Shown piece after piece: positions 4,222 to 39,845 of a stretch of 48,816 bases of DNA. The notes under the pieces are model-generated. The model searched no databases. It was given only the letters and a program-made list of their open reading frames with translations, and was not told where the DNA came from. Origin of the DNA: Candidatus Omnitrophota bacterium (GTDB lineage Bacteria > Omnitrophota > Gorgyraeia > Duberdicusellales > 4484-171); contig JAQVMQ010000003.1 of the NCBI GenBank assembly GCA_028703535.1, positions 1 through 48,816 of the forward strand, read 5' to 3'. The stretch's first letter is position 1. The number at the start of each line of letters is the position of its first letter. The translations under genes and the position numbers were made by a program.

Positions 4222-4231
4222 GAGGTGTGGC

Positions 4232-4549
4232 ATGGCTGTTAATATTAATTCCGATAATTTTGATTCTGAGGTAGTCCAGTCTCCTAAACCGGTTCTTTTG
4301 GATTTTTGGGCGCAGTGGTGCGGTCCTTGCCAGATGCTTGCCCCTGTGATTGGTGAGATATCCAGTGAGCTGGCGGATAAGATTAAAGTCTGTAAGGTTG
4401 ATGTCGATGAGAATGGCGAATTAGCTCAGGAATACGGTATAATGAGTATTCCGACCCTGATTATCATTAAAAATGGTAATGTTATCGCCAAGACAACTGG
4501 TAATATGAGCAAAGATAAACTCGTTGAGTTCATTAATTCAAATATTTAA
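4232..4549 (+). CDS. trxA: Thioredoxin
   Basis: WCGPC active site; 105 aa; typical DFWAQWCGPCQMLAP context. Confidence 0.9.
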   Translation: MAVNINSDNFDSEVVQSPKPVLLDFWAQWCGPCQMLAPVIGEISSELADKIKVCKVDVDENGELAQEYGIMSIPTLIIIKNGNVIAKTTGNMSKDKLVEFINSNI

Positions 4550-17289: not shown

Positions 17290-17592
17290 ATGTCTAATGA
17301 GAAAGCCGATGATTTTACTGCAGAAAGTGAAATAAAGGCTCTTCGTGACGAACAATTACAACGGATAGCCGTTCTAAATGACTATGTAACTGGTTATACA
17401 AAAGAGAACTTATATTCCGATCTAAAGCTCTATTATGATGAAGAGGTAGAATTTAATTTTAAAAAATTTGATAATTTTTTTAATGATGTATCTTTTCTCG
17501 AAAAGCTTGTGAATACAGCTAAACAAAAAAATACTCATCCCGTACTTGAATTTATACAATATATTTTTATTCAATCTGTTAAAGATGATTAG
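17290..17592 (+). CDS. Hypothetical protein
   Basis: 100-aa ORF that overlaps the next gene by 8 nt. Confidence 0.35.
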   Translation: MSNEKADDFTAESEIKALRDEQLQRIAVLNDYVTGYTKENLYSDLKLYYDEEVEFNFKKFDNFFNDVSFLEKLVNTAKQKNTHPVLEFIQYIFIQSVKDD

Positions 17593-18676
17593 AGCGATAT
17601 TCTCATTGTTTTTTATTTCAAGTTTTTTTTTATCTCTGGCTTTTGCCGATATCATTTATTTGAAAAATGGCAAATCGGTTAATGGTATTATTGAGTCTGA
17701 AACTGCCGAGCATCTTATTGTCAATATCGGTCCGGGTGAGATACAGGTAGACAAAGATAATATAAATACTTTCATTAAAGAAGAAAATACGGATCTTGAA
17801 AAACTTTGGGAAAATAAATATATTTTTAATAAAGATTTTGTTCCTGAAAGATTTTCTGAAACAATAGATAATTTAAATTTATTGAAAAACCAAAGAATAG
17901 CCGCAATCTCGGCCAAGCAGCAAAAAGAAAAATTAAAAAAATCACAATATCTATTAGATAAAAAGATGTATAGTATTCGTAAAGAACTTGATAGATTAAG
18001 TCAAAAATTATCAACTATGATATTAAAAGATAATCAGCAAGAATATTCGGCAATTGTCGAGAGATTCTATTCTTTACAAGCAGAACTTCAACTGGCCGAC
18101 AGTAGATCCCTTCAGATAAAGGAGGAGTTGCCGGTTTTGAATCAAGCTATCTCAAAATACATATCTGAACTCAATTTGTTTGAGTCGGATCTTGACGAAA
18201 AGGCCAAAAACTTAACGTCCTATAAAGAACAGAATTTCGTTGATGCTGTTAATTCTCAACTTGCGGTTTTTCATGAAGATTTTACGGCACATATACAAGA
18301 ATATACTATGCGCAACGACAATATAATAGTTCGCGGAGTTATTAATAATACTGTTGTCTGTGAGTTTGTCGTAGATACAGGCGCATCAATTGTTTTACTC
18401 CCGTATAAAGTAGCTGACAGGCTTTCTTTGATAAATAGTAACGGTCAGACTTTTGAAGCTACCTTGGCAAATGGGGAAAAGGTACCTGCCCAACTTGCCA
18501 TCTTAAAGAAATTACAGGTTGGGGAGTCATATGCAGAGAACGTTCAGGCAGGTATATTATTAGACAGGACTAGAGATTACCCTGGTTTGTTAGGTATGTC
18601 ATTTCTTAAAAACTTTATTATTAAAATAAATTATAACGAATCAAAGCTGCAGCTTGAGGATTTTACTCCGGAATAA
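17585..18676 (+). CDS. Retropepsin-like aspartic protease with signal peptide and coiled-coil region
   Basis: VVDTGASIVLL (D-T-G-A) in the C-terminal domain. I prefer the ATG at 17585 (MIRAIFSLFFISSFFLSLAFA signal peptide) over the ORF-track TTG at 17546. Confidence 0.65.
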   Translation: MIRAIFSLFFISSFFLSLAFADIIYLKNGKSVNGIIESETAEHLIVNIGPGEIQVDKDNINTFIKEENTDLEKLWENKYIFNKDFVPERFSETIDNLNLLKNQRIAAISAKQQKEKLKKSQYLLDKKMYSIRKELDRLSQKLSTMILKDNQQEYSAIVERFYSLQAELQLADSRSLQIKEELPVLNQAISKYISELNLFESDLDEKAKNLTSYKEQNFVDAVNSQLAVFHEDFTAHIQEYTMRNDNIIVRGVINNTVVCEFVVDTGASIVLLPYKVADRLSLINSNGQTFEATLANGEKVPAQLAILKKLQVGESYAENVQAGILLDRTRDYPGLLGMSFLKNFIIKINYNESKLQLEDFTPE

Positions 18677-18689
18677 GTTGATGTTTATA

Positions 18690-19034
18690 CTATAATTTTT
18701 GTCGGGCTTTTGCTCTTATATATTCTTCAAGATAGAGTATTTTATCTTTTGGAGCATCAACGAATTTAAGGCCGACATCATATCTATTTATGCCGGTAGG
18801 ATCTTTTTTTATCCATTGTACTTGTGACAGTATTGTAATAGCAAACGTCATTTTTTTTATTTTTAGATTTAATTTCAATAGAGAATTTTTAGGAATAAAT
18901 TCATGAGTGTAGATTCTGGCTCCGCCTAAGCTTATATCCCGTGTCATAAAAGAAAATTGTTTAGGATATGTTACTATTTGATAAACAATTTCTGAATCGT
19001 CCGGTATGCGTATATAACGTCGTCTTTCGTTCAT
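18690..19034 (-). CDS. PilZ domain protein
   Basis: RRRYIR (RxxxR) and DISLGG (DxSxxG) c-di-GMP-binding motifs. Located 5 nt downstream of pilM. Confidence 0.7.
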   Translation of the reverse strand: MNERRRYIRIPDDSEIVYQIVTYPKQFSFMTRDISLGGARIYTHEFIPKNSLLKLNLKIKKMTFAITILSQVQWIKKDPTGINRYDVGLKFVDAPKDKILYLEEYIRAKARQKL

Positions 19035-19039
19035 AGTAT

Positions 19040-19999
19040 TTAAGCTAACGCTATCCCATATGGAAGTACCATCTCCTGCGCATAATCAATCAATATAGGG
19101 GTTTTCTTTAGATCCACAAATGGATTCCAAAGTTGGCAGTTGATGTTCAGCTTATCCTGTAATATTTTAGGCAATTGTGCGAGTTTCGAAGACCCGCCAC
19201 ACAGATATAGCATTTCTATATCGCCTAATACATTGGTTTTTCGGCAATAGGCTATTGACATTTCCACTTCATTAATTAATGAATTGAGATCTATGGAAAT
19301 AATGTTTTCTAAATCAGAGTCAGGATTCATCTTTAGTTTGCTGGCATCAGGTAAATGCAAACCTTTAAATTCTGCGATAGCTCGTGTGAAATTATCACCT
19401 CCGACATTAACATCACGGGAAAAGATAATCTGTCCGCGTTTTACAATTAAAACGGTAGAAATTATATGTCCGACCCGAAAAATGATATAAGATTTGTCTT
19501 TGCTGGGTATAGTTTTCTTATAAAAAAGATTATATAAAGCAGAGGAGTCGATAACGATTTTTTCAAGCTCTATGTCAGTTTCTTTAAGTAACGCGATTTG
19601 ACTGTTAATGAAATTTTTTGAGCATGAGACAATCACTACATTCATTTGTCCGTCAGGCCGTTTACCTAAAATATTTACGTCAATTATGGCATCTTCAAGA
19701 GGGAAAGGGACATATTTTTCAATATCATATTTAAGTGAATTGAGAAGCTTATCTTTATTCATATATGCAAAAACATCATATCTGACAATAACATCCTTGC
19801 CTGAAACTGAAATTTTTGCCGTTTTACTTTTTATACCGGAATTAACAATCAGTTCTTTTATTCGTGCAGGGATGTTCGGTTCATTCTCATTTAAAGGCAT
19901 ATACCCGCAAGCTATTATCTTTTTTGAATGAGAATTACTAACCTCAACAGCTTTTACAGAATAAGTCCCAATATCTAATCCAATGACTGCCTTACTCAT
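19040..19999 (-). CDS. pilM: Type IV pilus assembly protein PilM (actin-like ATPase fold)
   Basis: VIGLDIGTYSVKAVEV N-terminus, LCGGSSKL; 319 aa. Confidence 0.8.
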   Translation of the reverse strand: MSKAVIGLDIGTYSVKAVEVSNSHSKKIIACGYMPLNENEPNIPARIKELIVNSGIKSKTAKISVSGKDVIVRYDVFAYMNKDKLLNSLKYDIEKYVPFPLEDAIIDVNILGKRPDGQMNVVIVSCSKNFINSQIALLKETDIELEKIVIDSSALYNLFYKKTIPSKDKSYIIFRVGHIISTVLIVKRGQIIFSRDVNVGGDNFTRAIAEFKGLHLPDASKLKMNPDSDLENIISIDLNSLINEVEMSIAYCRKTNVLGDIEMLYLCGGSSKLAQLPKILQDKLNINCQLWNPFVDLKKTPILIDYAQEMVLPYGIALA

Positions 20000-20397
20000 T
20001 TATTTAATTCCTTTATTCTTAAATATTCACGATAATATTTTGAAGCGTCGAGATTGTTGCCTAAATACTTACCATTGATCAAGAATAAATTATATAACGC
20101 TTTTTCCTGTATATTTTTATCAGGGCCTATTAAAACAGAATTAAATTCTTTAAGGGCGATGCTGTATAGACCGTTCAGTGAATAAAGAACACCCATGTTA
20201 TAGTGTATTTTTTGACAGCTTTCTTCTGTCATGCAAGATCTGGAAAGCTTGTTATATTCAAACAAGGCCATAGAATAATCATTGTTTTTATAATATTCGT
20301 AAGCCGTTTTTTCGGACGATGACGAGTTAGCAATGTTTTCGGCTAAAATAGATAATGGGAATACTGCAAAAAGAAAAATATAAAATAATTTATTCAT
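19996..20397 (-). CDS. TPR-like secreted protein (possible secretin accessory/pilotin)
   Basis: Signal peptide and TPR-like helices (AYEYYKNNDYSMALFEY..., ALKEFNSVL). Its ends overlap both pilQ and pilM. Confidence 0.4.
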   Translation of the reverse strand: MNKLFYIFLFAVFPLSILAENIANSSSSEKTAYEYYKNNDYSMALFEYNKLSRSCMTEESCQKIHYNMGVLYSLNGLYSIALKEFNSVLIGPDKNIQEKALYNLFLINGKYLGNNLDASKYYREYLRIKELNK

Positions 20398-22177
20398 TAG
20401 GCTCTTCTATTTTTTTTAAATCCATATCGGTATAATTGATTTTTCCCTTTTCAATCATATTAAGTAAATCTTCCCATTTCTCAGATACACTGTTAGGCGT
20501 GTTATTTTTGTTTTCAGCAGAAGATGGTACTTGATTTGAAAGAGTGGGAGTATCCTGAGATATTCCTACAGTATTTTCCAAAGCATCTTTCTTATTTACT
20601 TCTTCATTTTTTTGAGTATAGTCTTTCACTTTATAACTCAAATCGCGTTCAAGCGGGAAATTAAGTAAATTATTTGATAGATTTTGAACTTTATCAGAAT
20701 ACACATCATCTTTTTTTAGTTTTTTGTTTTTTTTCTCGACATCTACTTGTTCATCAGTCGTGTGTAAAATAGTTGGTGTTACAAAGATTAAAACTTCACG
20801 CATTACATCTTCGTCAATTGTTTTATGAAAAAACCTGCCTATCAATGGTAAATGTCCCAAGATAGGGAAGTAGGATTCGGTTTTAGTGACATCTCTTCTG
20901 CGCATACCTCCTATGACTATCGTGCGTCCGTCACCAACGATCATTTTTGTCTTTGTTATGCGTGAATTGGTTATAGGCTGCTCGTCTGACGCTGTATAAC
21001 CGGCAACAAAGCTCTGTTCAGTTTCAAGCTCCAAGATTACTTTATGATTAGGGGTTATATGCGGATTGACTTTTATAGCTATCCCGACACTTTTAAATTG
21101 TGTAGAGGTTGTACCGTCAGAAGATCCGCTGGCATCGGTTTGTACGTAAGTATACGGCACATCTTCAGTAATGTTTATTTCAGCGCTTTCGTTATTAAGT
21201 GTAATAACTTTGGGGCTTGCTATAATATTTGCTTTTTCTTCTGTTTCCAGCATTTGAACGGCGGCTTCAAGCCAGGCATGACTGAAAATAGTATTACCGT
21301 ATGTCAACCCTATAGTTCCGGTAGAGGATAAACTTTGTGTTGCAATTGTGGTCAGATCGGACAGGCTCTCGGGAGCATCTGTAGCAAAAACATCCGAAGC
21401 TTTTTTATCGGCAAAAGACCATTCAATGCCGAAATTGAAGTCATCGGTTATTTTCTTGTCGACCATTAAAACTTCAATTAATACTTGTGTAGTTTGCTCA
21501 TCCAATTCTGTTACTATTTTGGTCATTTTTTCAATATTTTCGGGGACATCCATAATTATAAGACTGTTCGTTCTTACGTCACCTTCGATTGAACCACGAT
21601 CGGATTGTATGGATTTTAAATAAGTTTTTGCTTCTTCTGTCGATACGAAGTTAAGTTTTATTATTTTTATATCTAAAGGACTTTTTTCCATTTCCTGTTG
21701 TATTTTCTCGTACGTTACGATAAGTATATAGTTGTCTTTTTCTATTTTTGCCAAACCATATGTCTTTAATATAAGATCCAGCGCGCTTTCCCATGATAAT
21801 CCTTCAATATGCAGTGTCACGTTTGCAGTAACTCCGTCAGCGACTAAAATACTTCTGTCACCTAGATCAGCAAAAGTTCGGGCAACATCTTTTATATCTG
21901 CATCTCTAAAATCAATATAAACTTTTGAATCCAACGAATCAACTTCAATATTGGAGCCTTCGTCTGTATTCATGGTGTCTTTTATTGGTGAAACGTTTTC
22001 ATCGGGTATAACTTCTGTTGATTCAGATATTCCGATATCCATGTTTTGCGGCATATTTATTGATGGCTCATCAAAAAAATTATCCGTTTCAAAATTGGAA
22101 ATATTTTCTTGTGCGAATGATATATTGATAGTACATGAGAAAAATGTAATAAATATAAAAATAAAAAATTTATTCAT
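20390..22177 (-). CDS. pilQ: Type IV pilus secretin PilQ
   Basis: N0/STN-like YIDFRDADIKDVARTFADL, and a C-terminal secretin domain ending in FPILGHLPLIGRFF...VLIFVTPTIL. Confidence 0.85.
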   Translation of the reverse strand: MNKFFIFIFITFFSCTINISFAQENISNFETDNFFDEPSINMPQNMDIGISESTEVIPDENVSPIKDTMNTDEGSNIEVDSLDSKVYIDFRDADIKDVARTFADLGDRSILVADGVTANVTLHIEGLSWESALDLILKTYGLAKIEKDNYILIVTYEKIQQEMEKSPLDIKIIKLNFVSTEEAKTYLKSIQSDRGSIEGDVRTNSLIIMDVPENIEKMTKIVTELDEQTTQVLIEVLMVDKKITDDFNFGIEWSFADKKASDVFATDAPESLSDLTTIATQSLSSTGTIGLTYGNTIFSHAWLEAAVQMLETEEKANIIASPKVITLNNESAEINITEDVPYTYVQTDASGSSDGTTSTQFKSVGIAIKVNPHITPNHKVILELETEQSFVAGYTASDEQPITNSRITKTKMIVGDGRTIVIGGMRRRDVTKTESYFPILGHLPLIGRFFHKTIDEDVMREVLIFVTPTILHTTDEQVDVEKKNKKLKKDDVYSDKVQNLSNNLLNFPLERDLSYKVKDYTQKNEEVNKKDALENTVGISQDTPTLSNQVPSSAENKNNTPNSVSEKWEDLLNMIEKGKINYTDMDLKKIEEPNE

Positions 22178-22180
22178 AGA

Positions 22181-22558
22181 TTATTCAGCCTTTCTATAAG
22201 GAACTGTAACCACCAACTCCTTATATTTTACTATTATGCCATCTTTTGTTATCTTTTGTATCAATAATTTTTTATCCCAAACTTCGTTTTCACCCAATAT
22301 TTTCGTATTTAATATAACAAACTTTTTATTACCATCAATAATAATCCCATTAATTACTAATTTAGTTACCAAATCTTCAAGTATCGCTTTATCTGTTGTA
22401 ATAAGGTCAAAATCCTCAAAACCTTCCGGAGCAACGAAGGGATCTCTCAGAGATAGTTGGTTAAAGGGGAGATCATTGCCTTGTGCATAAAGCGACGTAG
22501 ATATTCCTGTAATAAACAATAGTAACAAGATTATGTATTTATAATTATTATTTCGCAT
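22181..22558 (-). CDS. PilP-like pilus assembly protein
   Basis: Signal peptide, an LRDPF motif typical of PilP, a small beta-rich C-terminus, and a position immediately upstream of pilQ. Confidence 0.5.
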   Translation of the reverse strand: MRNNNYKYIILLLLFITGISTSLYAQGNDLPFNQLSLRDPFVAPEGFEDFDLITTDKAILEDLVTKLVINGIIIDGNKKFVILNTKILGENEVWDKKLLIQKITKDGIIVKYKELVVTVPYRKAE

Positions 22559-23150
22559 TTTGATATATAATCACAGTTATTTTTTCTTTATAATTATTAG
22601 ATTTTTCTTTCTTTTGAGTATCAATATCAATTTTTGAAACTTCAAACATCTTCGTATTATGCTCAATTGTCCATAAAAAACTTAAAAAATCTGAGAAAGT
22701 TGACAATAATTCTATTTCAACAGGTATTTCATTTAATTTAATTATTATTCCATCACGTTCAATGATTTTTTCTTTTTTATCAAGAGGCTTTATATATGTA
22801 AAGTCTATATTAGATTGTTTAGCAAGGTTAGTTAGCATATCCAAAACACCGTCAACACCAACAGAGTTGGCAATAAGATTTTCTTTGATCTTTAAAAGCT
22901 CGGATTGAATACGTTCAGTCTCGACTTCATGGTCTTTTTTTTCATTAGCAAGCTTATTAAAAGCATTGTCATCATATTGAGCAAAAGAGGTTATGCTTTT
23001 TTTTGTTGATTCTATTTCTTTGATTTTCGGAGAAAGCAGAAGAACCCAGGATATAGCGGCCATTATGAAAATAATGAAGAAAATAAAAGCTACTAACTGA
23101 GATCCGGAGAAGTCCATGCCCTTTTTTTCACTTAAAAGATCGACTGCCAT
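22548..23150 (-). CDS. PilO-like pilus assembly protein
   Basis: Single N-terminal transmembrane helix plus coiled coil; 200 aa; located between the PilN-like and PilP-like genes. Confidence 0.45.
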   Translation of the reverse strand: MAVDLLSEKKGMDFSGSQLVAFIFFIIFIMAAISWVLLLSPKIKEIESTKKSITSFAQYDDNAFNKLANEKKDHEVETERIQSELLKIKENLIANSVGVDGVLDMLTNLAKQSNIDFTYIKPLDKKEKIIERDGIIIKLNEIPVEIELLSTFSDFLSFLWTIEHNTKMFEVSKIDIDTQKKEKSNNYKEKITVIIYQNAK

Positions 23151-23723
23151 CTAATTCTCCATAATAAAGCGTATATTAAACTCGACTGCATCTTTCTTTC
23201 CATATGAAGTTACCCGTAAATTTTGCAGTTGATAATCCAAAATACTGTTATAAAAACGTTCATCGCTACGAAGGTCTTTAAAGAAATCGCTTATTACTGC
23301 TATCGGTCTTTGTGTTATCATAAACGGTGAGAGAAATCCATGTATCTTAATCTCTTTATTATTTAAGTTAACATCTTTAAACCACATAGCCACCGGGGTA
23401 TGTTTTGACAATGCATAGATTTTTTCTGCCCAATTTTTGCGTTTATTTACAAATTCATTATATATTCCGGTTTCAAGTGATAATTGGCTGTTATTTTTCT
23501 TTATTGTCGCAACTTCTGTCTCTATTGCAACATATTTTGCATAAGTTTGTTTAAGGTCATTTATCTTGTTTTTTTGTGAATTAGCGGTAAAGACAAGCGA
23601 GAAATAGCAAATAGCAATTAAAATCGCAGCAAAAACAACTGTAGAACTAATGAAATATACCGATTTTTTCTGTGAATCAGTAAGAGTATTTGACGATTCT
23701 ATAGGTCTAAGATTTATCTCCAA
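23151..23723 (-). CDS. PilN-like pilus assembly protein (start revised to TTG 23723)
   Basis: With the TTG start the N-terminus reads MEINLRP, matching the conserved PilN INLLP motif. AAGGGGG lies 6 nt upstream of the TTG. Single transmembrane helix and 190 aa. The ORF track starts at 23807. Confidence 0.55.
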   Translation of the reverse strand: MEINLRPIESSNTLTDSQKKSVYFISSTVVFAAILIAICYFSLVFTANSQKNKINDLKQTYAKYVAIETEVATIKKNNSQLSLETGIYNEFVNKRKNWAEKIYALSKHTPVAMWFKDVNLNNKEIKIHGFLSPFMITQRPIAVISDFFKDLRSDERFYNSILDYQLQNLRVTSYGKKDAVEFNIRFIMEN

Positions 23724-23828
23724 CTTGTACCCCCTTAAATACTTATATATATTATAACAAAATAAAATAAATGCACAACAAAATAGAAAACACTTTACCA
23801 TAATCATAAAATAGGTTATGATTTTTTT

Positions 23829-24827
23829 ATGGAAATCAGTAGATTAGACCTTAGGAAAAGTATAAAAAAGACATTGCCGATATTTGCATTTGTTATAGTT
23901 TGTGTTTTTCTATTCCTCCTGCTGATATATCAACATAAAATACTACAGGCAAAAATAGAAGACGCTTATATTGCGCAGGAGGCTAAAATATTTGAGATTA
24001 TACTTTTCAACAAAGCTAATATAATGTTCTATTTTTTTTCCATACTTTTAATCTTTTTTACATTTTTACTTTCATGGCAGGTCTATTCAAAAATGAGTAA
24101 AGATAAGTTGAATTTGGCAAACATGAAAACCGATTTTGCTATTATAGCGTCACACGAACTACGAACTCCTGTAACTTCCATATGCCTTATATCTGAACGG
24201 CTGCTTAAGGAGTCTTTGCCGGAGGTGAAGCGAACAGTATATCTTCATCAGATAAAGTATCTTGCTGAAAAGCTCAGTATGATAACTTCTAACATCTTAG
24301 ATATTGCAAAAATAGAAAAAGGCATATTACCTGTAGATGAAAAATCAATCGTGAATTTGAATAATCTTATTTCGACTGTTTCGGAACAATACAATATATT
24401 ACTCCAAACAAAACGCCAGAGAATAGAGCTGCAACTTGATAAAGAACTTCCGGTTATTTTTGCCGGTAAAAACGATATAATCAGAATTTTATCTAACCTT
24501 ATTGATAATGCGGTAAAAGCATCCAATTATGATGCGGCAATAAGAATACGAACAGAGCGGCTAGAATCAAAAGCTGTACTGGTTATACATAATGAGGGTA
24601 ATATTATTTCGGCGGTAGATCAGCCGAAGATTTTTATACCTTTCTACTATAATAACAAGAACGGCACAGGGTTGGGATTGCCGTTAGTTAAGATATTAAC
24701 ACAGCAAAATGATGGAGAAATAACTTTTACAAGCGATAAAGTTAGCGGTACGACTTTTAAACTGATCTTTCCTGAAACACAAGAGAACAATAATGAACAA
24801 ACAAAAAATACGAATATTGTTAGTTGA
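23829..24827 (+). CDS. Sensor histidine kinase (two TM helices, very short extracytoplasmic loop)
   Basis: HisKA H-box SHELRTPV, N-box LIDNAVKAS, G-box GTGLGLPLV. Confidence 0.85.
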   Translation: MEISRLDLRKSIKKTLPIFAFVIVCVFLFLLLIYQHKILQAKIEDAYIAQEAKIFEIILFNKANIMFYFFSILLIFFTFLLSWQVYSKMSKDKLNLANMKTDFAIIASHELRTPVTSICLISERLLKESLPEVKRTVYLHQIKYLAEKLSMITSNILDIAKIEKGILPVDEKSIVNLNNLISTVSEQYNILLQTKRQRIELQLDKELPVIFAGKNDIIRILSNLIDNAVKASNYDAAIRIRTERLESKAVLVIHNEGNIISAVDQPKIFIPFYYNNKNGTGLGLPLVKILTQQNDGEITFTSDKVSGTTFKLIFPETQENNNEQTKNTNIVS

Positions 24828-25467
24828 GGATGATCCGAATATATCCGGTATTATGGTTGATGAGTTATCCGAGAAATATGAGATATTCAATGTTTATACA
24901 GGAAATGACGGCATAGCCGCAGCCGCGGAAAACAAACCGGAGATGATACTTCTAGACATTATGCTTCCAGATATAACGGGATTTGAAGTATGTAAACAAA
25001 TACGCTTGATAGATTACAATTGCGGTATAATTTTTCTGACTGCCAAAACCGATGTAGTTGATAAAATACACGGGTTAGAAATAGGGGGGGATGATTATAT
25101 AGTAAAGCCTTTTGATTTTGATGAATTAAACGCACGAATACAGGCCGTATTGCGCAGAAAACAGAAGGCTCTTGAGTTACCGCAAATATATGAAAAAAAT
25201 GAACTTTTTTTTGATTTCAGGAAAAATACAGTTCGGAAAAAAAAGAAAAAAACAACCTTATCATTTCTGGAATCAGACATAATGAAATTTCTCATAGCTC
25301 ATGAGAATTCCCCGGTAAAACGCCAAGAGATACTGGAAAATGTATGGGGTTATTCTAATTTCCAGGATACACGGACAGTTGATATGCATATTTCATCGTT
25401 ACGTAAAAAGATAGGAAAGGAACATATTCTTACAGTCCACCAAAAAGGCTACATGTTTGTCCCGTAA
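24793..25467 (+). CDS. OmpR-family response regulator
   Basis: Receiver domain (LLVEDDPNI, LLDIMLPD, KPF) plus a winged-helix C-terminus (RTVDMHISSLRKK). It overlaps the kinase gene by 35 nt. Confidence 0.85.
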   Translation: MNKQKIRILLVEDDPNISGIMVDELSEKYEIFNVYTGNDGIAAAAENKPEMILLDIMLPDITGFEVCKQIRLIDYNCGIIFLTAKTDVVDKIHGLEIGGDDYIVKPFDFDELNARIQAVLRRKQKALELPQIYEKNELFFDFRKNTVRKKKKKTTLSFLESDIMKFLIAHENSPVKRQEILENVWGYSNFQDTRTVDMHISSLRKKIGKEHILTVHQKGYMFVP

Positions 25468-25516: not shown

Positions 25517-28500
25517 ATGGATTTCAAAATAACCGAAGCTCAGAAAGGTTTGTATCTTGACCATTTAACGCAAGTGTACAATCGTGTATTTTTATTTGAA
25601 AAAATAAAACCACAGATCAACGAGAAACATCCGTTTACTTTATTCATGATAGATTTTGATAATTTTAAGAATATAAATGATTCTTTTGGACATTTAGCAG
25701 GTGATAAAACTTTAGTACTTGTGTCTCAAGGGATAAAAAACATTATTCCGAAAGATGCCGTACTTATACGTTATGCAGGGGATGAGTTTATCGTTGTTTT
25801 GGAAACTCCCGATATTGACAGGGTAAAATCTATAGCTGAAGATATACTTAATTCAATCCGTGTTCTTGATATCGATTTCAATAATACAAAGATCAATCAA
25901 ACACTTAGTATCGGTATATCTTTCTATCCCGGCGAATCAAACGATCTGAATCAGCTTATCGGTAATGCCGATGCGGCTTTGTATCTATCTAAAAAACGCG
26001 GAAAAAACAACTATGCTTTTTATAACGAGATAAGTATTGAGCAGATGAGTTTAAAGATCGGTTTGAATTATTTTCCTTGCAGCAAGATTATTAATCATGA
26101 GAATATAATCGAAGAACTAAAAGATATGTCCGAAACAAACGTGTTCGGGGGAATGCTGCTTACCGGATCTTCTGGGATAGGCAAAAGCCGTATAATTAAC
26201 GCTGTTAAAGAACATGTAAAGAAAGAGACTCTTTTCGATATCAATCCTTTGCAGAAAGATTGTCTTATGCCTTTTTCATCTCTTCGCAACGGCATATCTG
26301 CATATATAAAAAAACTACTGGCTCTTGAAGATGTTGATATATCATTACTTTCTGATTTATCCAATGAAAATAAAAAAATCCTTGATTTCTTTATTAATCC
26401 CGAAAATAATTTCAACTTACTCTTGAATAATTGCACAACGGATCTTATTAATTCAGCTTTATTATCCTTTTTTGATTGTATCGTAAATAAATACTCAAAA
26501 TTATCAATTATTATTGATAATTTCCAATTTATCGATTTAAAATCACTTAATTTTCTCAAGATGTTAATGGAGAGCTCATATTCACGAAATGTCAAATTTT
26601 ATGCAACAGTACTGTCGCCACTGCCTGAAAACATAAATAATCCTGAAGCATTAACAAAAACAATTACGGAGATATCGAATATACCTAAAATAATCTCTCA
26701 TGAAATACATCCTCTTACAAAAGAGAATACTCGTGAAATGATTGATTTTATTTTTCCGGGGTTAGGAGATAATCTTAATTTTTCTGCGGATATCTTCGAA
26801 ATATCTAATGGACAGCCTTTTTTTATTGAAGAACTTTTGAAACTTCTTTTGGTTAAAAATTTCATATTCCACGAAGATGGAGGGTGGAACATACGTGATA
26901 ACTACCAGGATAAAATACCAAAGACATTAACTGAAGTCATACGCCAAAGACTGATAACGCTTGATCCAGAGATAAAAGAAACTATTTTAATATCTTCTTT
27001 ACTGGGTGAGACCATAAGTCCTGAACTTATAAGCCGGATAAACTCTTCTAATGAAAATGACGTATTAGAGATCTTGTCAAAAGCGAATAAGCAGAAAATA
27101 TTGAGAGAAGACAATAATACCTTCAGCTTTTTTAATCCCGCAGCTAAGGATACTGCGCTTAACGAACTTTCGGCTGATAAGAAAGATGAGCTTTTTTCGC
27201 TTGCGTCCGATGCTCTTTTAGATAGTTATACTGATAATCTAGAGGAGATAAGTTTTCAGCTGGCAAACATATTTAAAAATAATAATGATCTCACTCGTTT
27301 GAACTCACTTTCACAGATAATATCAAAAAACGCATCCAATATACTTAACTCTGAAGAAATACTCGCTTACCTTGAAGATATATCTTTCAAGAGAAAAAAA
27401 GCTGCCCATACGATAAAGATAAAGGAACTTTCGTTAGAAGATAGAGATCTTATTTTGGGTTTCTTGAGACACTTCCAAGCAGCTGTAAATTATTCGGGGC
27501 TTTATCCTTCTAACAATAAACTGCGTATACAAATAGTGGAGGATATCTTTAAATTACTTGAACTGCTTTTAAGCAAATATTCATCTATTGAAATATCTGA
27601 AGTAGATAAAAATCTTGTGGTTAATCAAATACGCTTAACTGATTATTATACAAAAGGTCTTGATTTAAGTAGCATAACCACTAGCTTTATTGAACGCAAC
27701 ATAAAAACCGTTACATTTTATAACGGCATAAATCTTGAGGAACTCAGAAATTTTATTTCGGTTATATGTTTAAATCCTGATGAGATATCCAAAATTGGAG
27801 AATGGCAGGCAATAATATCAAAAAATAAATTAACTAATATTTCTATTAATCAGGCAGTATATATATCCGAAGAAAAAAGCAGATTTGCGCCGATAAAAAA
27901 TAAAATCGAAGGCGCGATAATCTCAGACTTTCTGCTTGGAAAACTTTCAGGAAAAGACAAATCAATCGTGCCGAATCTAGATAAAGACACTTTGGAGATA
28001 TTAAAAACAGTGGGTAATAAAAACACTCTGGAAATGCTTAAAAATATAAGCAATATTCCCGATTTATCTTCTTTAGCAGAAGCACCTGTAGAGCCAGATA
28101 AGAGCAATAAACAGGAAAAACCCAGTATAAATACTTTAATAAAAAAACTTGAAGATAAACATACGCATCTTATGTCTTTGGAAGAAGTAAATGATTATAT
28201 TGATAATATCAATGATATACAAACCTCTATCAGCTCACTTGATGATGCAGCTTTATTCCTTGATTTTTTAATAAAATCAAGGAATAAAATTGAAGAAGTG
28301 ATATCGCCTGAAAAGAAAGGAACAAAGAATAAGGATGTTCACAAACAAAATTCAATGGAAATAACATCCATTATAGATATTTTTGTTTCCGAAACACCTA
28401 AGAATAAGATAGAATTTTTAAAAAAATTATCACCTTCGGAAAAAACCACGGTAAAAATTGTTAATACTTTAAAAAACGAAGATATTGAAAATATAGTTAG

Positions 28501-29578
28501 TCAATTAACATCGACTGACGAATCATTATTATCAAAGAAAAAGCTCAGAGATGTTATATTGACATCTACCGACAAACAGTTGCTGGAAAAAATTAAAAAG
28601 CGTACAGGAGAAATACTCGAAAAGACTTATGCAAATGATAAAAATTCAAATATATCAAAAACAATCAGTATATTTGACGATACATCCGAATGGGACAAGA
28701 TGCCTCTTGTAACTAAAATCGATGATTTAAGTATGTTTTCAAGGGAAGACTTTGAGGTAATACCGGCTGATACTATTAATAAGCTGTTATCCGATATATT
28801 GAAATTATCCAAAAGTGATGATTTTAATATGTTAAAAAAAATAACATCTATTTTATCGGAGAAACAAAGTATCGTCTCCGATAAACTAAAAAACGAGATC
28901 AACCGAGCCTATATGAATTTTTTTATAAATATAGAAAAAAACGGATCGAGCTATCATGAGATAGTACCGGTTTTTTGTGCTATAGTGTCGCTATTGGAAG
29001 ATAAGGATATGGCGTTCTTTCAAATAACGTTTTTGTCGAGCTTGCTTAAAAACATGCTTTCGATTTTTAAAATTGATAATTTTGATAAAAATATATACGA
29101 AAAGATCCTTATCATTAACTACATATTTGAATACATCTCACTTCCTAAAAAGAATCTCACAGCCGGAGAATTACAAAAAATAAAAAAAGATTTCGCCTTG
29201 GCTAATTATGCGGAAAAACTCTTTAATCTATACATTACAAAACCCCGAATAACGGAATTCATCAATACAGAATTACCTAAGACATATTTGTTTTTTTCTG
29301 ACAGTCCGTTAGTTATTGCTAAAGTGCTTAATGAGAAGATCTCTTCGATAACGGATCCTTTTGAAAATTTTTCTTTCATACAAAAAATATCAAGGTTCAT
29401 TCTTTCTTTAAACAAAGAAGCGTTGTCTGTTATATTTAAAAAGTTATTAACTGAAAAAAATAAAAAGAAAGTTTACGATATGTTTTTACTGCTTCCTGCG
29501 GACATACAGGAATATATAGTTAATGATATTAAAAACGATAAGGAATATATTTCAATAATTAACGATTTTATAAAATAA
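25517..29578 (+). CDS. Giant multidomain protein: N-terminal GGDEF (AGDEF variant) diguanylate-cyclase domain, AAA_16/STAND-like P-loop NTPase, and about 900 aa of helical region of unknown function
   Basis: GGDEF-domain pattern HLTQVYNR...DFDNFKNINDSFGHLAGD...RYAGDEF (AGDEF at 25775-25789). Walker A GSSGIGKS (26165-26188). Walker-B-like SIIIDNFQFID. Confidence 0.75.
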   Translation: MDFKITEAQKGLYLDHLTQVYNRVFLFEKIKPQINEKHPFTLFMIDFDNFKNINDSFGHLAGDKTLVLVSQGIKNIIPKDAVLIRYAGDEFIVVLETPDIDRVKSIAEDILNSIRVLDIDFNNTKINQTLSIGISFYPGESNDLNQLIGNADAALYLSKKRGKNNYAFYNEISIEQMSLKIGLNYFPCSKIINHENIIEELKDMSETNVFGGMLLTGSSGIGKSRIINAVKEHVKKETLFDINPLQKDCLMPFSSLRNGISAYIKKLLALEDVDISLLSDLSNENKKILDFFINPENNFNLLLNNCTTDLINSALLSFFDCIVNKYSKLSIIIDNFQFIDLKSLNFLKMLMESSYSRNVKFYATVLSPLPENINNPEALTKTITEISNIPKIISHEIHPLTKENTREMIDFIFPGLGDNLNFSADIFEISNGQPFFIEELLKLLLVKNFIFHEDGGWNIRDNYQDKIPKTLTEVIRQRLITLDPEIKETILISSLLGETISPELISRINSSNENDVLEILSKANKQKILREDNNTFSFFNPAAKDTALNELSADKKDELFSLASDALLDSYTDNLEEISFQLANIFKNNNDLTRLNSLSQIISKNASNILNSEEILAYLEDISFKRKKAAHTIKIKELSLEDRDLILGFLRHFQAAVNYSGLYPSNNKLRIQIVEDIFKLLELLLSKYSSIEISEVDKNLVVNQIRLTDYYTKGLDLSSITTSFIERNIKTVTFYNGINLEELRNFISVICLNPDEISKIGEWQAIISKNKLTNISINQAVYISEEKSRFAPIKNKIEGAIISDFLLGKLSGKDKSIVPNLDKDTLEILKTVGNKNTLEMLKNISNIPDLSSLAEAPVEPDKSNKQEKPSINTLIKKLEDKHTHLMSLEEVNDYIDNINDIQTSISSLDDAALFLDFLIKSRNKIEEVISPEKKGTKNKDVHKQNSMEITSIIDIFVSETPKNKIEFLKKLSPSEKTTVKIVNTLKNEDIENIVSQLTSTDESLLSKKKLRDVILTSTDKQLLEKIKKRTGEILEKTYANDKNSNISKTISIFDDTSEWDKMPLVTKIDDLSMFSREDFEVIPADTINKLLSDILKLSKSDDFNMLKKITSILSEKQSIVSDKLKNEINRAYMNFFINIEKNGSSYHEIVPVFCAIVSLLEDKDMAFFQITFLSSLLKNMLSIFKIDNFDKNIYEKILIINYIFEYISLPKKNLTAGELQKIKKDFALANYAEKLFNLYITKPRITEFINTELPKTYLFFSDSPLVIAKVLNEKISSITDPFENFSFIQKISRFILSLNKEALSVIFKKLLTEKNKKKVYDMFLLLPADIQEYIVNDIKNDKEYISIINDFIK

Positions 29579-29579: not shown

Positions 29580-30026
29580 ATGCTATCTGAAAGAAAAAAA
29601 ACAGCACCGCTGGGTAAAATATTACTTCAGCTTAAAAAGATCACTTTCGCCCAATTAGGTCAAGCCCTAATTGTTCAAAAAGAGAAAATGCCGGATAAAC
29701 GAATAGGCGAGATATTGGTTTATCTGTCTTTCATATCAGAAGATGAGTTGGCATATGCGTTAGCGTTACAATATCAATATCCATCGCTTGATCTTAAAAA
29801 CTATTCGATAAATCAAGAAGCTTTGGCATTAATATCAAAAGAAACGGCTGAAAAAAACCTTATACTGCCGCTTGATATTTTTGATGACATATTAACTGTA
29901 ACAGTTCTAAATCCATTGCATAGAGATGTTTTTGATGAAATATCAAAAAACACCGGAAAAGAATTGCGTTTGTTTGTTTCCTCAAGACAGGATATTCTTT
30001 CTGTAATAAATACTTTATATAAATAA
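29580..30026 (+). CDS. Stand-alone T2SSE_N / MshEN-type domain protein
   Basis: Two tandem 24-residue MshEN-like motifs: PLGKILLQLKKITFAQLGQALIVQ and RIGEILVYLSFISEDELAYALALQ. These are followed by the LILPLDIFDDILTVTVLNP GspE N-terminal pattern. 148 aa. Confidence 0.65.
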   Translation: MLSERKKTAPLGKILLQLKKITFAQLGQALIVQKEKMPDKRIGEILVYLSFISEDELAYALALQYQYPSLDLKNYSINQEALALISKETAEKNLILPLDIFDDILTVTVLNPLHRDVFDEISKNTGKELRLFVSSRQDILSVINTLYK

Positions 30027-31252
30027 TGGAAAATACACATAATAAAATCCCGGAGAATGTATCAAATTCTATAGATAAACTTTTGTCTGCTGACTCATTT
30101 GCCCCTGGTTTTGTTAAAAAATTCCTAATGAAATCGGTTGAGCTTAAAGCAAGCGATATCTTTGTTGAGCCGTTGGATAACCAATTGCGTATACGTTTTA
30201 GAATAGACGGTATCTTGCATACTATTGACACTTGTCCGCCAAAAAACGCTCAGTCTGTAGCTAGTTGCATAAAGGTTATTTCTGATTTAGACATTGCCGA
30301 ACACAGATTGCCGCAAGACGGCCGTTTTAGAATATTTATTGATAATAAACCCATAGATTTCCGTGTTTCTGTATTGCCCACAAACATCGGTGAAAAGATA
30401 GTGTTGAGGGTTCTTGATAAAGGCAATATGCGTCTTGACCTTGATACTTTAAATTTTGATAAAGAATGTATTGAGACCTTAAAGCGTAATCTTGCCAAAC
30501 CTTATGGTATGATACTTGCCTGCGGCCCTACAGGAGCGGGGAAGACAACAACATTATATTCAGCCTTGAGTCATATAAATAAAATTGATGTTAACATAAT
30601 GACAGCAGAAGATCCTATTGAATACCAACTTCAGGGTATAAATCAGGTAGCTATACATGAAGATATAGGCTTAACATTCGCGTCTGTTTTGCGTGCAGCC
30701 TTAAGACAGGATCCGGATATAATACTTGTAGGTGAAATACGTGATTTAGAGACAGCGGACGTTGCCGTAAAAGCGGCATTAACTGGTCATTTGGTTTTAT
30801 CGACTTTACATACAACTACGGCTACGGGAGCTGTAATCCGTTTTATCAGTATGGGAGTAGAGCCGTTTCTATTGGCATCATCATGTGTCATGACATCGGC
30901 TCAAGCATTGATGCGTACACTTTGTCCTAAATGCAAAAAACCTCTTAAAGATAAAGATGCCCTCATGGAAGTCTTTAAGTCGGAAGAGTTTATTCCGCAA
31001 AAAGAGCCGGAATTCTTTGAACCTGTAGGTTGTGATTATTGCAGTAAAACCGGGTATAAAGGACGGGTAGGCATAATGGAAATCCTTGAGATAACAAAAG
31101 ATATCCGTGAATTACTTGTAGCAAATGCTGATGAGAACAACATACGTAAAGTAGCCAAAGACGCGGGTATGATAACTATACGTGAAAGGGCATTGCAAAA
31201 AGTTGTGTTAGGGCTTTCGACTATGGATGAGGTATACAGGGTTACGGTATAA
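30026..31252 (+). CDS. GspE/PilB-family ATPase core lacking the N-terminal MshEN/N1 domain
   Basis: Walker A GPTGAGKTTT, Asp box AEDPIEY, Walker B DPDIILVGEIRD, His box LSTLHT. Tetracysteine CPKC...CDYC is typical of PilB/GspE rather than PilT. The start overlaps the upstream stop (TAATG). Confidence 0.8.
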   Translation: MENTHNKIPENVSNSIDKLLSADSFAPGFVKKFLMKSVELKASDIFVEPLDNQLRIRFRIDGILHTIDTCPPKNAQSVASCIKVISDLDIAEHRLPQDGRFRIFIDNKPIDFRVSVLPTNIGEKIVLRVLDKGNMRLDLDTLNFDKECIETLKRNLAKPYGMILACGPTGAGKTTTLYSALSHINKIDVNIMTAEDPIEYQLQGINQVAIHEDIGLTFASVLRAALRQDPDIILVGEIRDLETADVAVKAALTGHLVLSTLHTTTATGAVIRFISMGVEPFLLASSCVMTSAQALMRTLCPKCKKPLKDKDALMEVFKSEEFIPQKEPEFFEPVGCDYCSKTGYKGRVGIMEILEITKDIRELLVANADENNIRKVAKDAGMITIRERALQKVVLGLSTMDEVYRVTV

Positions 31253-31254: not shown

Positions 31255-32847
31255 ATGGAAAAATTATCGTCGTTACAAAAAAAACATCTACATACACTTT
31301 GCAAGAATAATTATTATCCTCCGATAGATCTGTCTTCATGTATAATCAACGACGATATTTTGGATTATATACCGGAAAAAATTGCAAAAACACATAATGT
31401 AATACCCATATCATGTATGGGGTATGTATTGACTATAGCCATAGTCGACCCGTTAAACATAGCAACCATAGACAGTCTTAAACTAATAACCCTTATGGAG
31501 ATATCACCGGTAATAGCTGATGAGCAGCAGCTAAAAGCGGCTATTGAGCTAAACTATAAACGAAAAAAAGAGGCAGAGCCTGATACATCATTAATTCCTG
31601 AGGAGCCAGGTGATACTCCTCAAGGATTTGATCAGTTTCAACGCGAACAAATAGATGTTGATAACGTTGCTAAGCTATCAAAAGAAACACGCATAATAAA
31701 TGCCGTTAACAAAATATTATCCGACGCTGTGACTATGCGCGCAAGTGATATACATATTGAACCCTTTGAAAATGAAGTGCGAGTACGTTATAGAATAGAC
31801 GGCATATTACATGAGACTAAAGTTGTTGAAAAACAATTTCAGCCTGCGGTGATTGCGCGTATAAAAATAATGTCACGGCTCGATATTACGCAGCGCAGAA
31901 TACCACAGGATGGTCGTTTTTCTTTCAAAACAAAAACTAAAGAACTGGATGTGCGTGTTTCCACCGTACCTGTGGATTTCGGTGAAAAAATAGTAATGCG
32001 GTTGCTGGATAAAGAAAATATCAATCTTTCAATAGAAAGTCTGGGCTTTTCTGAAGCGGCATACAAGGCGTTTACAGACGCTATAAAAAAACCTCTTGGG
32101 ATGATATTATTAACCGGGCCTACAGGTTCTGGCAAAACTACAACGCTTTATACTTTATTGAATACGTTAAACACTGAGAGCCGCCATCTTTTGACAATAG
32201 AAGACCCAGTGGAATACAACCTCTGGGGTGTTTCTCAGGTGCCTGTACGTCATGAAATAGGTTTGGATTTTTCTCAAATACTGCGTTCAACATTGCGTCA
32301 GTCACCCGATGTAATAATGCTTGGTGAAATACGTGATAGCGAAACGATAGACATTGCAATGAAGGCGGCACTTACGGGCCATATAGTTTTTTCCACGCTC
32401 CATACAAACGATGCACCTTCGGCTATATCCCGTTTGATCAATATGGGTGTTGCGCCTTTTCTAATCTCATTTTCGATAAACCTTATAGCTGCACAGCGGT
32501 TGGTAAGACGTATATGTCCGGCATGCCGGGAATCTTATCAACAAGATCTCTCCGGAAACACCGAAATTCCTTTGCAATACCGAAAAAAAGATGCTATTCT
32601 ATACCGAGGCAAGGGTTGTTCTGAATGCTCAAATACAGGTTATAAAGGGCGCATAGCGGTAATAGAAGCTCTTTCTTTTGATAATACTATACGTGATATG
32701 ATAATAAGAAAAAAATCAACCGAAGAAATACGTGATTACGCTTTAAAAAATACTACTATGCTATCGTTACGTGAAGATGCCAGTGAAAAATGTTTTAAAG
32801 GCGAAACTACTCTTGAAGAGGTATTAAGAGTTACAACAAATATATAA
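31255..32847 (+). CDS. pilB: Type IV pilus assembly ATPase PilB (full-length GspE family)
   Basis: N-terminal T2SSE_N-like region, GPTGSGKTTT, DPDVIMLGEIRD-type motifs, CPAC...CSEC tetracysteine; 530 aa. Confidence 0.85.
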   Translation: MEKLSSLQKKHLHTLCKNNYYPPIDLSSCIINDDILDYIPEKIAKTHNVIPISCMGYVLTIAIVDPLNIATIDSLKLITLMEISPVIADEQQLKAAIELNYKRKKEAEPDTSLIPEEPGDTPQGFDQFQREQIDVDNVAKLSKETRIINAVNKILSDAVTMRASDIHIEPFENEVRVRYRIDGILHETKVVEKQFQPAVIARIKIMSRLDITQRRIPQDGRFSFKTKTKELDVRVSTVPVDFGEKIVMRLLDKENINLSIESLGFSEAAYKAFTDAIKKPLGMILLTGPTGSGKTTTLYTLLNTLNTESRHLLTIEDPVEYNLWGVSQVPVRHEIGLDFSQILRSTLRQSPDVIMLGEIRDSETIDIAMKAALTGHIVFSTLHTNDAPSAISRLINMGVAPFLISFSINLIAAQRLVRRICPACRESYQQDLSGNTEIPLQYRKKDAILYRGKGCSECSNTGYKGRIAVIEALSFDNTIRDMIIRKKSTEEIRDYALKNTTMLSLREDASEKCFKGETTLEEVLRVTTNI

Positions 32848-32851: not shown

Positions 32852-34051
32852 ATGGGATTATTCAACTGGACAGGAATAAATGCTGACGGTAAAAAAGATT
32901 CAGGCACGATAGACGGAGAGAATCTTTCTTCAGTTATCACTCAGCTTAAAGCCCGGAAAATACAAATAACGGATATAAAAGAGATAAAAACCCAGAAAAA
33001 AGTAAGACGGGGGAAGGTAAGGTCAAAGGATCTTGAACTGTTCAGCCGTCAACTTGCATCACTAATACAATCACGTATACAAATAGTCAAAAGTCTTGAT
33101 ATATTGGCTAACCAGGTAGATAATCCATATTTTTCGGAAGTAATACTCTCTGTAAAAAAGAATATCGAAAAGGGTAATTCTTTGGCTATGTCATTTGCCG
33201 AATACCCAAAAGTTTTTTCACCGCTTTTTATAAATATGATCAATGTAGGTGAGTTTAGCGGGAACCTTGATAAAATGCTTAATCGACTGGCAACATATAT
33301 TGAAGGATATAACGCATTGATAAAACGTGTAAAGTCAGCAATGATATATCCTATCGTTGTCTTTGGCATTGCTGCGGTGCTTTTAGCTTTGATCTTTATC
33401 TTTGTTATCCCAGGTTTTAAAAGTATTTTTGACAGTTTAGGCAAAGGCTTACCGCTACCGACTCAGATACTAATAAGCACCAGTGATTTTATTCGTGCAT
33501 ATATTATATATATGGCTATCGGAATAACCGGGCTGATCTTTGGCGCACTGAAATTCTTTTCTTCGGAAAAAGGTAAAAGAATATTTGAAATCATAAGGGC
33601 AAGAATCCCTATTTTTGGTGATTTGCACAAAAAAATGGTACTAGCCCGTTTTACAAAAACTTTGGCGATTTTAATAAAAAGCGGCGTAACAATTATTAAC
33701 GCGCTGGAGATATCGGGTAAAACCGCGGGAAGCTATAAACTTGAAGAAGAACTTATGCCTACCATAACTAACGAAGTTTCCAGAGGTAAAAAGCTTGATA
33801 TCGCCCTTCAAAATTCCGGATTTTTCCCTCCTATGGCCACAAACATGATTGGAGTAGGGGAAGAAGGAGGAGACCTTGGTAATATGCTTGACAGGGTTTC
33901 GGATTTATATGATAAAGATGTAGAAAACGCGACATCTGCTTTATTATCTATTATGGAGCCGCTAATCATAGTTGTTCTAGGGACATTGATAGGCGGAATT
34001 GTTATTTGTTTATTCCTGCCTATCATGAAAATGAGTTCCATGGTAGGATAG
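32852..34051 (+). CDS. pilC: Type IV pilus platform protein PilC (GspF family)
   Basis: Two GspF-type repeats, three transmembrane segments; 399 aa; immediately downstream of pilB. Confidence 0.85.
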   Translation: MGLFNWTGINADGKKDSGTIDGENLSSVITQLKARKIQITDIKEIKTQKKVRRGKVRSKDLELFSRQLASLIQSRIQIVKSLDILANQVDNPYFSEVILSVKKNIEKGNSLAMSFAEYPKVFSPLFINMINVGEFSGNLDKMLNRLATYIEGYNALIKRVKSAMIYPIVVFGIAAVLLALIFIFVIPGFKSIFDSLGKGLPLPTQILISTSDFIRAYIIYMAIGITGLIFGALKFFSSEKGKRIFEIIRARIPIFGDLHKKMVLARFTKTLAILIKSGVTIINALEISGKTAGSYKLEEELMPTITNEVSRGKKLDIALQNSGFFPPMATNMIGVGEEGGDLGNMLDRVSDLYDKDVENATSALLSIMEPLIIVVLGTLIGGIVICLFLPIMKMSSMVG

Positions 34052-39461: not shown

Positions 39462-39845
39462 TTAGTTATGTTTACTATCAAAGACAGGCTTTTGGGCTTT
39501 TTCGGCAGAATCAATGTATTTCTCAAGTATTTTCTTATCTTTAGGTGCTATATCACTGAAGAAGATACCTACATAATATAGACCCGCGCCATTATCCCTT
39601 ATATACTCACGGCGGACTATTACCCCTTCACAATTAACTTTTTTTACTGTATTGGTTTTATTTTTTTTGACAGGTATCAAAAGAACGACATTAAGCTTAG
39701 TCATTAATTCAAGGGGCTTATCAATTGAACAATAAGCACCACTCACAGAAATATTCTTGGTTTCTGTCAATATGTCGTTTTCGCCGCCCGCTAACTTCAG
39801 TGGCAAAACTTTCTCAAACCGCTTATGTTGTCTTCTTTCCTGCAT
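39462..39845 (-). CDS. PilZ domain protein
   Basis: RRQHKR (RxxxR) and NISVSG (NxSxxG) motifs; 127 aa. Confidence 0.7.
   Translation of the reverse strand: MQERRQHKRFEKVLPLKLAGGENDILTETKNISVSGAYCSIDKPLELMTKLNVVLLIPVKKNKTNTVKKVNCEGVIVRREYIRDNGAGLYYVGIFFSDIAPKDKKILEKYIDSAEKAQKPVFDSKHN

Follow-up and report, generated by a model that had tools for sequence, protein, structure and literature searches.

A free-standing MshEN-domain protein encoded beside a headless PilB-type ATPase in Omnitrophota: a candidate c-di-GMP receptor acting in trans on a type IV pilus motor

The DNA analysed here is a stretch of 48,816 nucleotides (nt) from a Candidatus Omnitrophota bacterium (assembly GCA_028703535.1, contig JAQVMQ010000003.1, positions 1 to 48,816 of the forward strand), referred to below as the window. 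Pfam searches place a complete type IV pilus locus in it, around three adjacent genes that we call M, A1 and A2. M encodes a free-standing MshEN domain, a domain known as a receptor for cyclic di-GMP (c-di-GMP), A1 encodes a PilB-type ATPase without such a domain, and A2 encodes a second PilB. The genes and the junction on which the analysis turns are the following.

29580-30026, plus strand: M, a 148-amino-acid (aa) free-standing MshEN-domain protein with a four-helix MshEN_N and an alpha/beta MshEN_C subdomain (Pfam, Protein Data Bank alignment, AlphaFold2, Foldseek)
30024-30028, plus strand: TAATG, the stop/start overlap of M and A1 (TAA at 30024-30026, ATG at 30026-30028)
30026-31252, plus strand: A1, a 408-aa PilB/GspE-type ATPase core (N2 domain, C-terminal domain, tetracysteine) with no N1/MshEN domain (Pfam)
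31255-32847, plus strand: A2, a 530-aa PilB paralogue with an MshEN_C/N1 domain and an ATPase core and with no four-helix bundle (Pfam)
32852-34051, plus strand: PilC platform protein (Pfam T2SSF, in two stretches)

The open reading frames (ORFs) of 148, 408 and 530 aa and the TAATG overlap are exactly as a first-pass annotation of this DNA had described them, judged by the ORF map and the sequence itself. That annotation had also taken the 148-aa ORF for the GspE N-terminal domain alone, and this was borne out: the only Pfam match of M is MshEN (PF05157), over residues 65-147, and its 54.2 bits are well above the gathering cut-off of 23.1. Over its full length M can be aligned with MshE (5htl) and with the N-terminal 140 residues of the solved PilB proteins 5tsg and 6olj (E 8e-13). 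An AlphaFold2 model, built on an alignment of 48 family members, has a predicted local distance difference test score of 91 and a predicted template-modelling (TM) score of 0.75, and consists of four helices (residues 11-17, 23-35, 42-48 and 54-64) and, after them, an alpha/beta subdomain. The best Foldseek match of M is 5htl_A, the MshE N-domain with c-di-GMP (E 2e-9, TM 0.65-0.68); other leading matches are the PilF GSPII-B domain with c-di-GMP and the Xanthomonas citri PilB-N/PilZ complex (7lkm), and the GspE-GspL complexes 2bh1 and 4pht are also among the matches. Some gene callers begin M at the internal Met37, giving a 112-aa protein (29688-30026; P0002, on four contigs including the window) that would lack the first of the two c-di-GMP motifs described below. 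Since residues 1-36 are conserved across orthologues, the 148-aa start is the correct one.

A1 was described beforehand as a full GspE/PilB core lacking the N-terminal domain, and the profile matches agree. Its sole Pfam match is T2SSE (PF00437) at residues 28-405 (E 1.6e-127), which covers positions 10-370 of the 370 in the profile, and it carries Walker A (GPTGAGKT), Walker B (DPDIILVGEIRD), the His box (TGHLVLSTLHT) and the tetracysteine (CPKC...CDYC). Ahead of the T2SSE match A1 has no more than about 27 residues, and PF05157 finds no match in it; the same is true of 12 orthologues. The nearest homologues of A1 are proteins of 406-438 aa from Candidatus Omnitrophota that have T2SSE only (51-60% identity), and full-length PilB proteins of 570-580 aa rank next. 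In A2, Pfam finds MshEN at residues 21-105 and T2SSE at residues 143-525. Because MshEN begins at residue 21, there is no room for the four-helix c-di-GMP-binding subdomain; the PilB at 31255-32847 had been described earlier as having no c-di-GMP motifs.

A short ORF that ends on the start codon of the next could reflect a pilB with a frameshift or an error of 1 nt in the assembly, such as an indel in the AAA run at 30021-30023, and indeed one base inserted at 30021-30025 would fuse the M and A1 frames. We checked the junction in seven independent assemblies. Over the 601 bases around it, the window does not differ from two Logan assemblies and one Joint Genome Institute (JGI) assembly (n=4), and Logan contigs of low depth (2-5x), as opposed to raw reads, from three further studies span 30015-30055 with no difference and no gap. 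We then compared twelve divergent loci of the same type (type A, defined below: the window, L005, L007, L009, L010, L015, L026, L030, L090, L091, L092 and L093). In all 12 an MshEN-only gene of 146-159 aa stands directly before the short ATPase gene, followed by a PilB of 527-566 aa and PilC. M and A1 overlap by as much as 20 nt or lie as much as 57 nt apart (-20 to +57 nt), and the offset between the two starts takes all three values (0, 1 and 2) modulo 3. In L010, L015 and L090 the two genes share one frame and are separated by a stop, so no indel can explain the split there. The break falls exactly at the domain boundary, and the short ATPases form a clade of their own (100% bootstrap; see below). 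A frameshift or assembly error, which the first-pass annotation had left as a possibility, is excluded by these data, and we give it next to no probability. M and A1 are two real genes, and the split and the tight linkage of MshEN domain and N-truncated ATPase are confirmed. In annotation, M/A1 pairs should be neither merged nor flagged as pseudogenes.

An artefact of just this kind does occur in an unrelated contig. L004/P0003 (a 189-aa MshEN protein followed by a 359-aa ATPase) could at first be taken for an independent case of the split in a distant relative and was dropped as a 1-nt frameshift. The reading frame of a proteobacterial-type mshE (L004 114-1818) is interrupted there in an A5 run within N2, frame 2 ending in ..DATVVKIAAIFV and frame 0 continuing from KLLQSLFEDASQVNASDIHIEP; this break is either a pseudogene or a sequencing error, and it mimics the M/A1 split superficially. 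Programmed frameshifting or readthrough to an M-A1 fusion was likewise rejected: there is no slippery heptamer at the junction, and the orthologues differ in frame relation.

M belongs to a family of free-standing proteins of about 150 aa that comprises at least 90 clusters. A profile search returned about 75 clusters of MshEN-only proteins of 145-165 aa, either unnamed or labelled 'hypothetical protein' or 'PilB', and the named members among them come from Omnitrophota; in a scan of GTDB species representatives the free-standing form was present in 16 of the 80 best loci. The loci are of two types. Type A, to which the window belongs, has the order AGDEF-STAND cyclase, M, short A1, A2 and PilC. 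In type B (11 loci, including L012, L016, L017, L020, L024 and L027), M is followed by a full-length A1 (565-576 aa), a full-length A2 and PilC. Some loci hold additional small MshEN genes, all of which retain both motif glycines: a second one, 'M2' (142-143 aa), lies between the second PilB gene and pilC in the type-B loci L027 (10861-11292) and L031 (6980-7408), and two stand in tandem with no adjacent ATPase gene in L036 (6690-7166 and 7344-7814). Metagenome-assembled genomes from third-party annotation (TPA) records titled 'uncultured Planctomycetia/Planctomycetales' (L012, L022, L024, L030, L038, L076) carry the Omnitrophota-type cassette, and their NCBI labels may misplace them.

MshEN domains bind c-di-GMP through two tandem 24-residue motifs. 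Both were reported for the window at 29607-29771, and both are there.

29607-29678, plus strand: motif I, M residues 10-33, PLGKILLQLKKITFAQLGQALIVQ; G12, L15, L26, L30 and Q33 are kept, and P10, K19 and K20 deviate
29700-29771, plus strand: motif II, M residues 41-64, RIGEILVYLSFISEDELAYALALQ; G43 and Q64 are invariant in 94/94 free-standing members

In MshE the backbone amides of the motif glycines bind the guanines, and G11L and G40I abolish binding, while changes at R9, D12 and Q32 cost less than fivefold (PMC5013675). In PilF, K or L at motif position 1 goes with nanomolar affinity, and the consensus has been extended to (R/K/L)LG (PMC11731258). Our comparison covered 94 free M proteins and 101 attached N-termini, the latter from full-length PilB proteins of Omnitrophota. 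The position-3 glycine is present in both motifs of 91/94 free proteins and of 0/101 attached N-termini; 97 of the 101 have it in neither motif, with mostly T and S instead. Position 24 of motif II is Q in 100% of the free proteins, and E, G or S in the attached N-termini. More generally, positions 2, 3, 17, 21 and 24 of the motifs are near-invariant in the free members and lost in the attached domains. At the first residue the family consensus is K for motif I, and L, P or R for motif II. Against a relaxed form of the published pattern, [RKPN]hGxxhhxx[GAS]hhxxxxhxxxhxx[QNKRYWST], both motifs fit in most family members. Window M retains both position-3 glycines (G12, G43), both glutamines and the six Leu/Ile positions (2, 17 and 21 of each motif); its motif II fits the relaxed pattern, and its motif I fits save at positions 10 (K) and 11 (K). 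The 7-residue spacer between the two motifs had been noted as a departure from the reported 5, and it turns out to be no peculiarity of the window: it recurs in Geobacter PilB (5tsg alignment) and in 71/94 free proteins, while 99/101 attached N-termini have 5. Since the ligand-site residues are kept on the free domains and lost on the attached ones, the free M family looks like a competent c-di-GMP receptor by its signature, and the attached heads look inactive. The degeneration of the attached MshEN_N in Omnitrophota PilB proteins is systematic (P0015-P0123; A1/A2 of L011-L076), with RLT... or RLS... in place of RLG.

A putative source of the ligand, which the first-pass annotation had passed over, adjoins M, and the rest of the pilus locus lies beyond it.

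25517-29578, plus strand: a 1353-aa protein with an AGDEF variant of GGDEF, an AAA_16/STAND-type NTPase domain and a long C-terminal region, a putative dedicated diguanylate cyclase (Pfam)
23829-25467: histidine kinase and response regulator, between the pilus operon and the cyclase gene
19040-23807, minus strand: divergent type IV pilus structural operon encoding a PilN-like protein, PilO, a small protein, secretin, a tetratricopeptide repeat protein and PilM (Pfam PilM_2, Secretin, PilO, weak PilN)
18690-19034, minus strand: a 114-aa single-domain PilZ protein directly downstream of pilM (Pfam PilZ, E 3.7e-11)

The cyclase gene stops 1 nt before the start of M, and M overlaps A1 by 1 nt, an arrangement that fits stoichiometric co-production. 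A search for RNA runs returned none. Pfam GGDEF (PF00990) matches residues 13-165 of the cyclase protein (E 7e-39, profile positions 2-161 of 161), AAA_16 matches residues 207-358, and about 1000 residues after the STAND/AAA_16 domain have no Pfam match in the window (HEAT_2 in some orthologues). The putative cyclase site is AGDEF, with RYAGDEF kept in orthologous loci, and an AGDEF site is catalytically active in VCA0965 (PMC3974145). An RxxD I-site was looked for five residues upstream of the AGDEF site and is absent, the sequence there being PKDA; an AGDEF domain with no RxxD I-site fused to a STAND/AAA_16 NTPase makes the putative cyclase an unusual one. The AGDEF-STAND protein stands upstream of M in 10 type-A loci, a count that leaves out L010 (contig edge), and its architecture is kept at about 1340-1420 aa. 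Type-B loci have other cyclase genes: GAF-GGDEF or HAMP-GAF-GGDEF proteins are encoded directly upstream of M in L012, L017 and L020, and in L016 a GGDEF gene is one PilT-like gene (3424-4491) away. Among the type-B loci scanned, L024 has no GGDEF gene near M.

Other genes of the window indicate further c-di-GMP inputs, namely the PilZ gene beside pilM and an HD-GYP-type gene. The former may provide a second input to the same pilus machine, by analogy with PilZ and PilB of Xanthomonas. A second single-domain PilZ protein (127 aa) is encoded at 39462-39845 on the minus strand. The HD-GYP-type gene (43935-44975, minus strand), about 12 kb from the cassette, encodes a 346-aa protein with an HD_5 domain, a candidate c-di-GMP phosphodiesterase. 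Adjoining the pilus operon, a gene at 17546-18676 on the plus strand encodes a 376-aa protein with a C-terminal retropepsin-like aspartyl protease domain (gag-asp_proteas / Asp_protease_2), and a 538-aa ORF at 45946-47562 on the minus strand has no Pfam match at E <= 0.001.

The phylogenies used here are neighbour-joining (NJ) trees only. In the tree of ATPase cores there are two paralogue clades, A2 (99% bootstrap) and A1 (91%); within A1 the short proteins form a single clade (100%), with the full-length A1 proteins as its sister group. In the tree of MshEN domains all free M proteins fall into one clade apart from the attached N-termini, with 76% bootstrap, or 60% after removal of 22 key motif columns. 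Profile hidden Markov models (HMMs) agree with this grouping: for all eight type-A M proteins tested (8/8), the HMM of type-B free M proteins gives a score 19-43 bits above that of the HMM built from 93 attached A1 N-termini, and the margin is still 9-30 bits with the C-subdomain alone. Short signatures also tell the two sets apart, with G[YF]PY[IL] and P(I/L)D in the free domains versus IPPI(N/D)L and P(V/I)SK in the attached ones. Because the trees and the HMM scores group the free M proteins with one another, M would have existed beside a full-length A1 before the head of A1 was lost. We moderately favour the view that the PilB N-domain has an old, free-standing paralogue in M, and that the type-A lineage later lost a degenerate A1 head.

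Taken together, these data make it fairly probable, in our judgement, that M and A1 are real and putatively co-transcribed genes of a conserved Omnitrophota type IV pilus motor cassette, with M a trans-acting c-di-GMP receptor and the older paralogue, and A1 an ATPase that has lost its head. Judged from sequence and gene order, the likeliest role of M is that of a receptor that serves the type IV pilus motor and is fed by the adjacent cyclase, and the proposed sensor role has strong comparative and contextual support. The mechanism we propose would run as follows. The AGDEF-STAND cyclase would make c-di-GMP locally, and the four-helix bundle of M would bind this c-di-GMP. M would then couple headless A1 (and/or A2) to the PilM/PilC platform, or alter its activity, by means of its N1-like C-terminal subdomain, a homologue of the module by which GspE docks on GspL and PilB on PilZ (2bh1, 4pht, 7lkm). 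In this way c-di-GMP might gate pilus extension.

Several observations weigh against this reading, some bearing on the origin of M and others on its function. With regard to origin, when the tree is built from a single subdomain, bootstrap support for the free-M clade is as low as 43% (C-subdomain) and 28% (N-subdomain), and in the reciprocal HMM test type-B M proteins score about equally on the HMM of type-A M and on that of the attached domains. So moderate a separation between free and attached domains would suit a simple fission, in which one full-length, c-di-GMP-competent PilB was cut into M and A1 in the lineage of the window. The tight coupling of the two genes, the agreement of gene order with domain order, and the sum of 148 + 408 = 556 aa, the size of a PilB, would follow naturally from such a cut. 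The first-pass annotation had remarked that the 556-aa total is that of a normal PilB; this match is probably a coincidence of domain sizes. A free M also stands before full-length orthologues of A1 in the 11 type-B loci, so that a simple fission requires either a separate origin of free M elsewhere or the regaining of a head by those ATPases. Type-A M groups with the free proteins of these loci in the tree (76%) and by 19-43 bits, with an advantage that persists for the C-subdomain, and it shares the signatures that set free domains apart from attached ones. We therefore do not favour gene fission, which seems to us improbable, and keep to an older free-standing M with a later loss of the A1 head.

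With regard to function, the difficulties concern motif I and the cyclase. The first-pass annotation had counted two deviations in motif I, but three key positions deviate: position 1 (P10), position 10 (K19, for G/A/S) and position 11 (K20, for a hydrophobic residue). In window M and its close relatives, position 10 is occupied by K or N and position 11 by K or R (QLKKIT), and K/R at position 11 is common to the subclade of the window (the window, L005, L007, L010, P0150 and P0154). One of eight changes blamed for the loss of binding in XpsE is I19R, the equivalent of position 11. Given that a basic residue is conserved at position 11 in this subclade, putative binding there may be weaker or different. 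In one type-A locus, L091, no cyclase gene adjoins M. Members of the subclade of the window might have no part in c-di-GMP binding and serve as nucleotide-independent adaptors or regulators, for example by docking A1 to PilM/PilC, or by competitively inhibiting the contact between N1 and the platform. The failure of motif I at positions 10 and 11 of the relaxed pattern would fit such a role, as would the nature of MshEN_C/N1, a known protein-protein docking module by the same Foldseek matches (2bh1, 4pht, 7lkm). Opposed to it are the retention in window M of both essential glycines, both glutamines and the six Leu/Ile positions, the near-invariance of the ligand-site positions in the 94 free members and their loss in the 101 attached ones, and the cyclase gene adjoining M. 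We consider a nucleotide-independent adaptor or regulator unlikely, and c-di-GMP reception by M the better explanation.

A broader and more tentative proposal, one that we would sooner doubt than assert, is that Omnitrophota moved c-di-GMP control of the pilus motor from the ATPase to a diffusible MshEN subunit with its own cyclase, as a local module, which would serve a motor of two PilB paralogues whose heads are degenerate or deleted. Such a split system could allow signal perception and ATPase activity to be reconstituted from separate proteins. How c-di-GMP binding is relayed from the MshEN head to the PilB/MshE hexamer is poorly understood, in part owing to the flexible tether of the head; the arrangement of N1 and N2 is flexible in solved PilB proteins. 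A separate 150-aa sensor and a headless ATPase would permit direct measurement of binding, an ATPase assay with the sensor added back, and a structure of the complex. It is already known that MshEN is a c-di-GMP receptor, that it is combined with many other domains, and that cyclases and receptors form local pairs. Our literature search found no description of a conserved free-standing MshEN family in pilus loci, of a free MshEN paired with a headless PilB or of the cassette, nor of systematic degeneration of attached heads in Omnitrophota. A survey of Omnitrophota genomes covers type-4a pili and mentions neither PilB nor c-di-GMP; in this uncultured phylum, type IV pili are believed to be the means of attachment to host cells (PMC10066038). 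The analysis thus points to a probable c-di-GMP receptor family in Omnitrophota that is annotated only as 'hypothetical protein' or 'PilB'. Conversely, the attached MshEN domains of Omnitrophota PilB proteins should not be counted as c-di-GMP receptors, and domain-based censuses would overcount them.

Among known systems, the N-domain of Vibrio cholerae MshE (MshEN, 5HTL; Wang et al. 2016, PMC5013675) resembles M in its two-subdomain fold, in its tandem 24-residue motifs with position-3 Gly, Leu triad and terminal Gln, and in its tie to a type IV pilus ATPase. Unlike the MshE domain, to which it is about 24% identical, M is a separate polypeptide beside a headless ATPase; its spacer is 7 residues rather than 5, and positions 1, 10 and 11 of its motif I read P, K and K. 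Thermus thermophilus PilF provides a precedent for the first residues of the M motifs: its GSPII-B domain (8PDK; PMC11731258) is of MshEN type, has non-arginine first residues (K167, L196) like the M family, and binds c-di-GMP at nanomolar affinity. The PilF ATPase carries three such domains fused to it in tandem, of which this is one, whereas M is a single copy encoded by a separate gene.

The headless state of A1 recalls the retraction ATPases PilT and PilU, which are hexameric T2SSE-family cores with no N1/MshEN domain. In contrast to these, A1 retains the PilB/GspE tetracysteine and clusters inside the A1 lineage of PilB, and PilT-like genes are separate (as at L016 3424-4491). The closest full-length relatives of A1 are the Omnitrophota PilB proteins of 570-580 aa (e.g. 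P0015 and P0022; 51-57% identity), which are encoded in the same loci, followed by PilC; they carry an attached, degenerate MshEN domain, which A1 of the window does not have. The proposed control in trans has its counterpart in the PilB-PilZ-FimX system of X. citri (7LKM; PMC8389850), where c-di-GMP reaches PilB through separate small proteins that bind its MshEN-fold N-domain, and the window, too, encodes a single-domain PilZ beside pilM. In X. citri the EAL domain of FimX is the sensor, PilZ is the adaptor and PilB retains its N-domain, whereas in the window the MshEN-fold domain is itself the free subunit.

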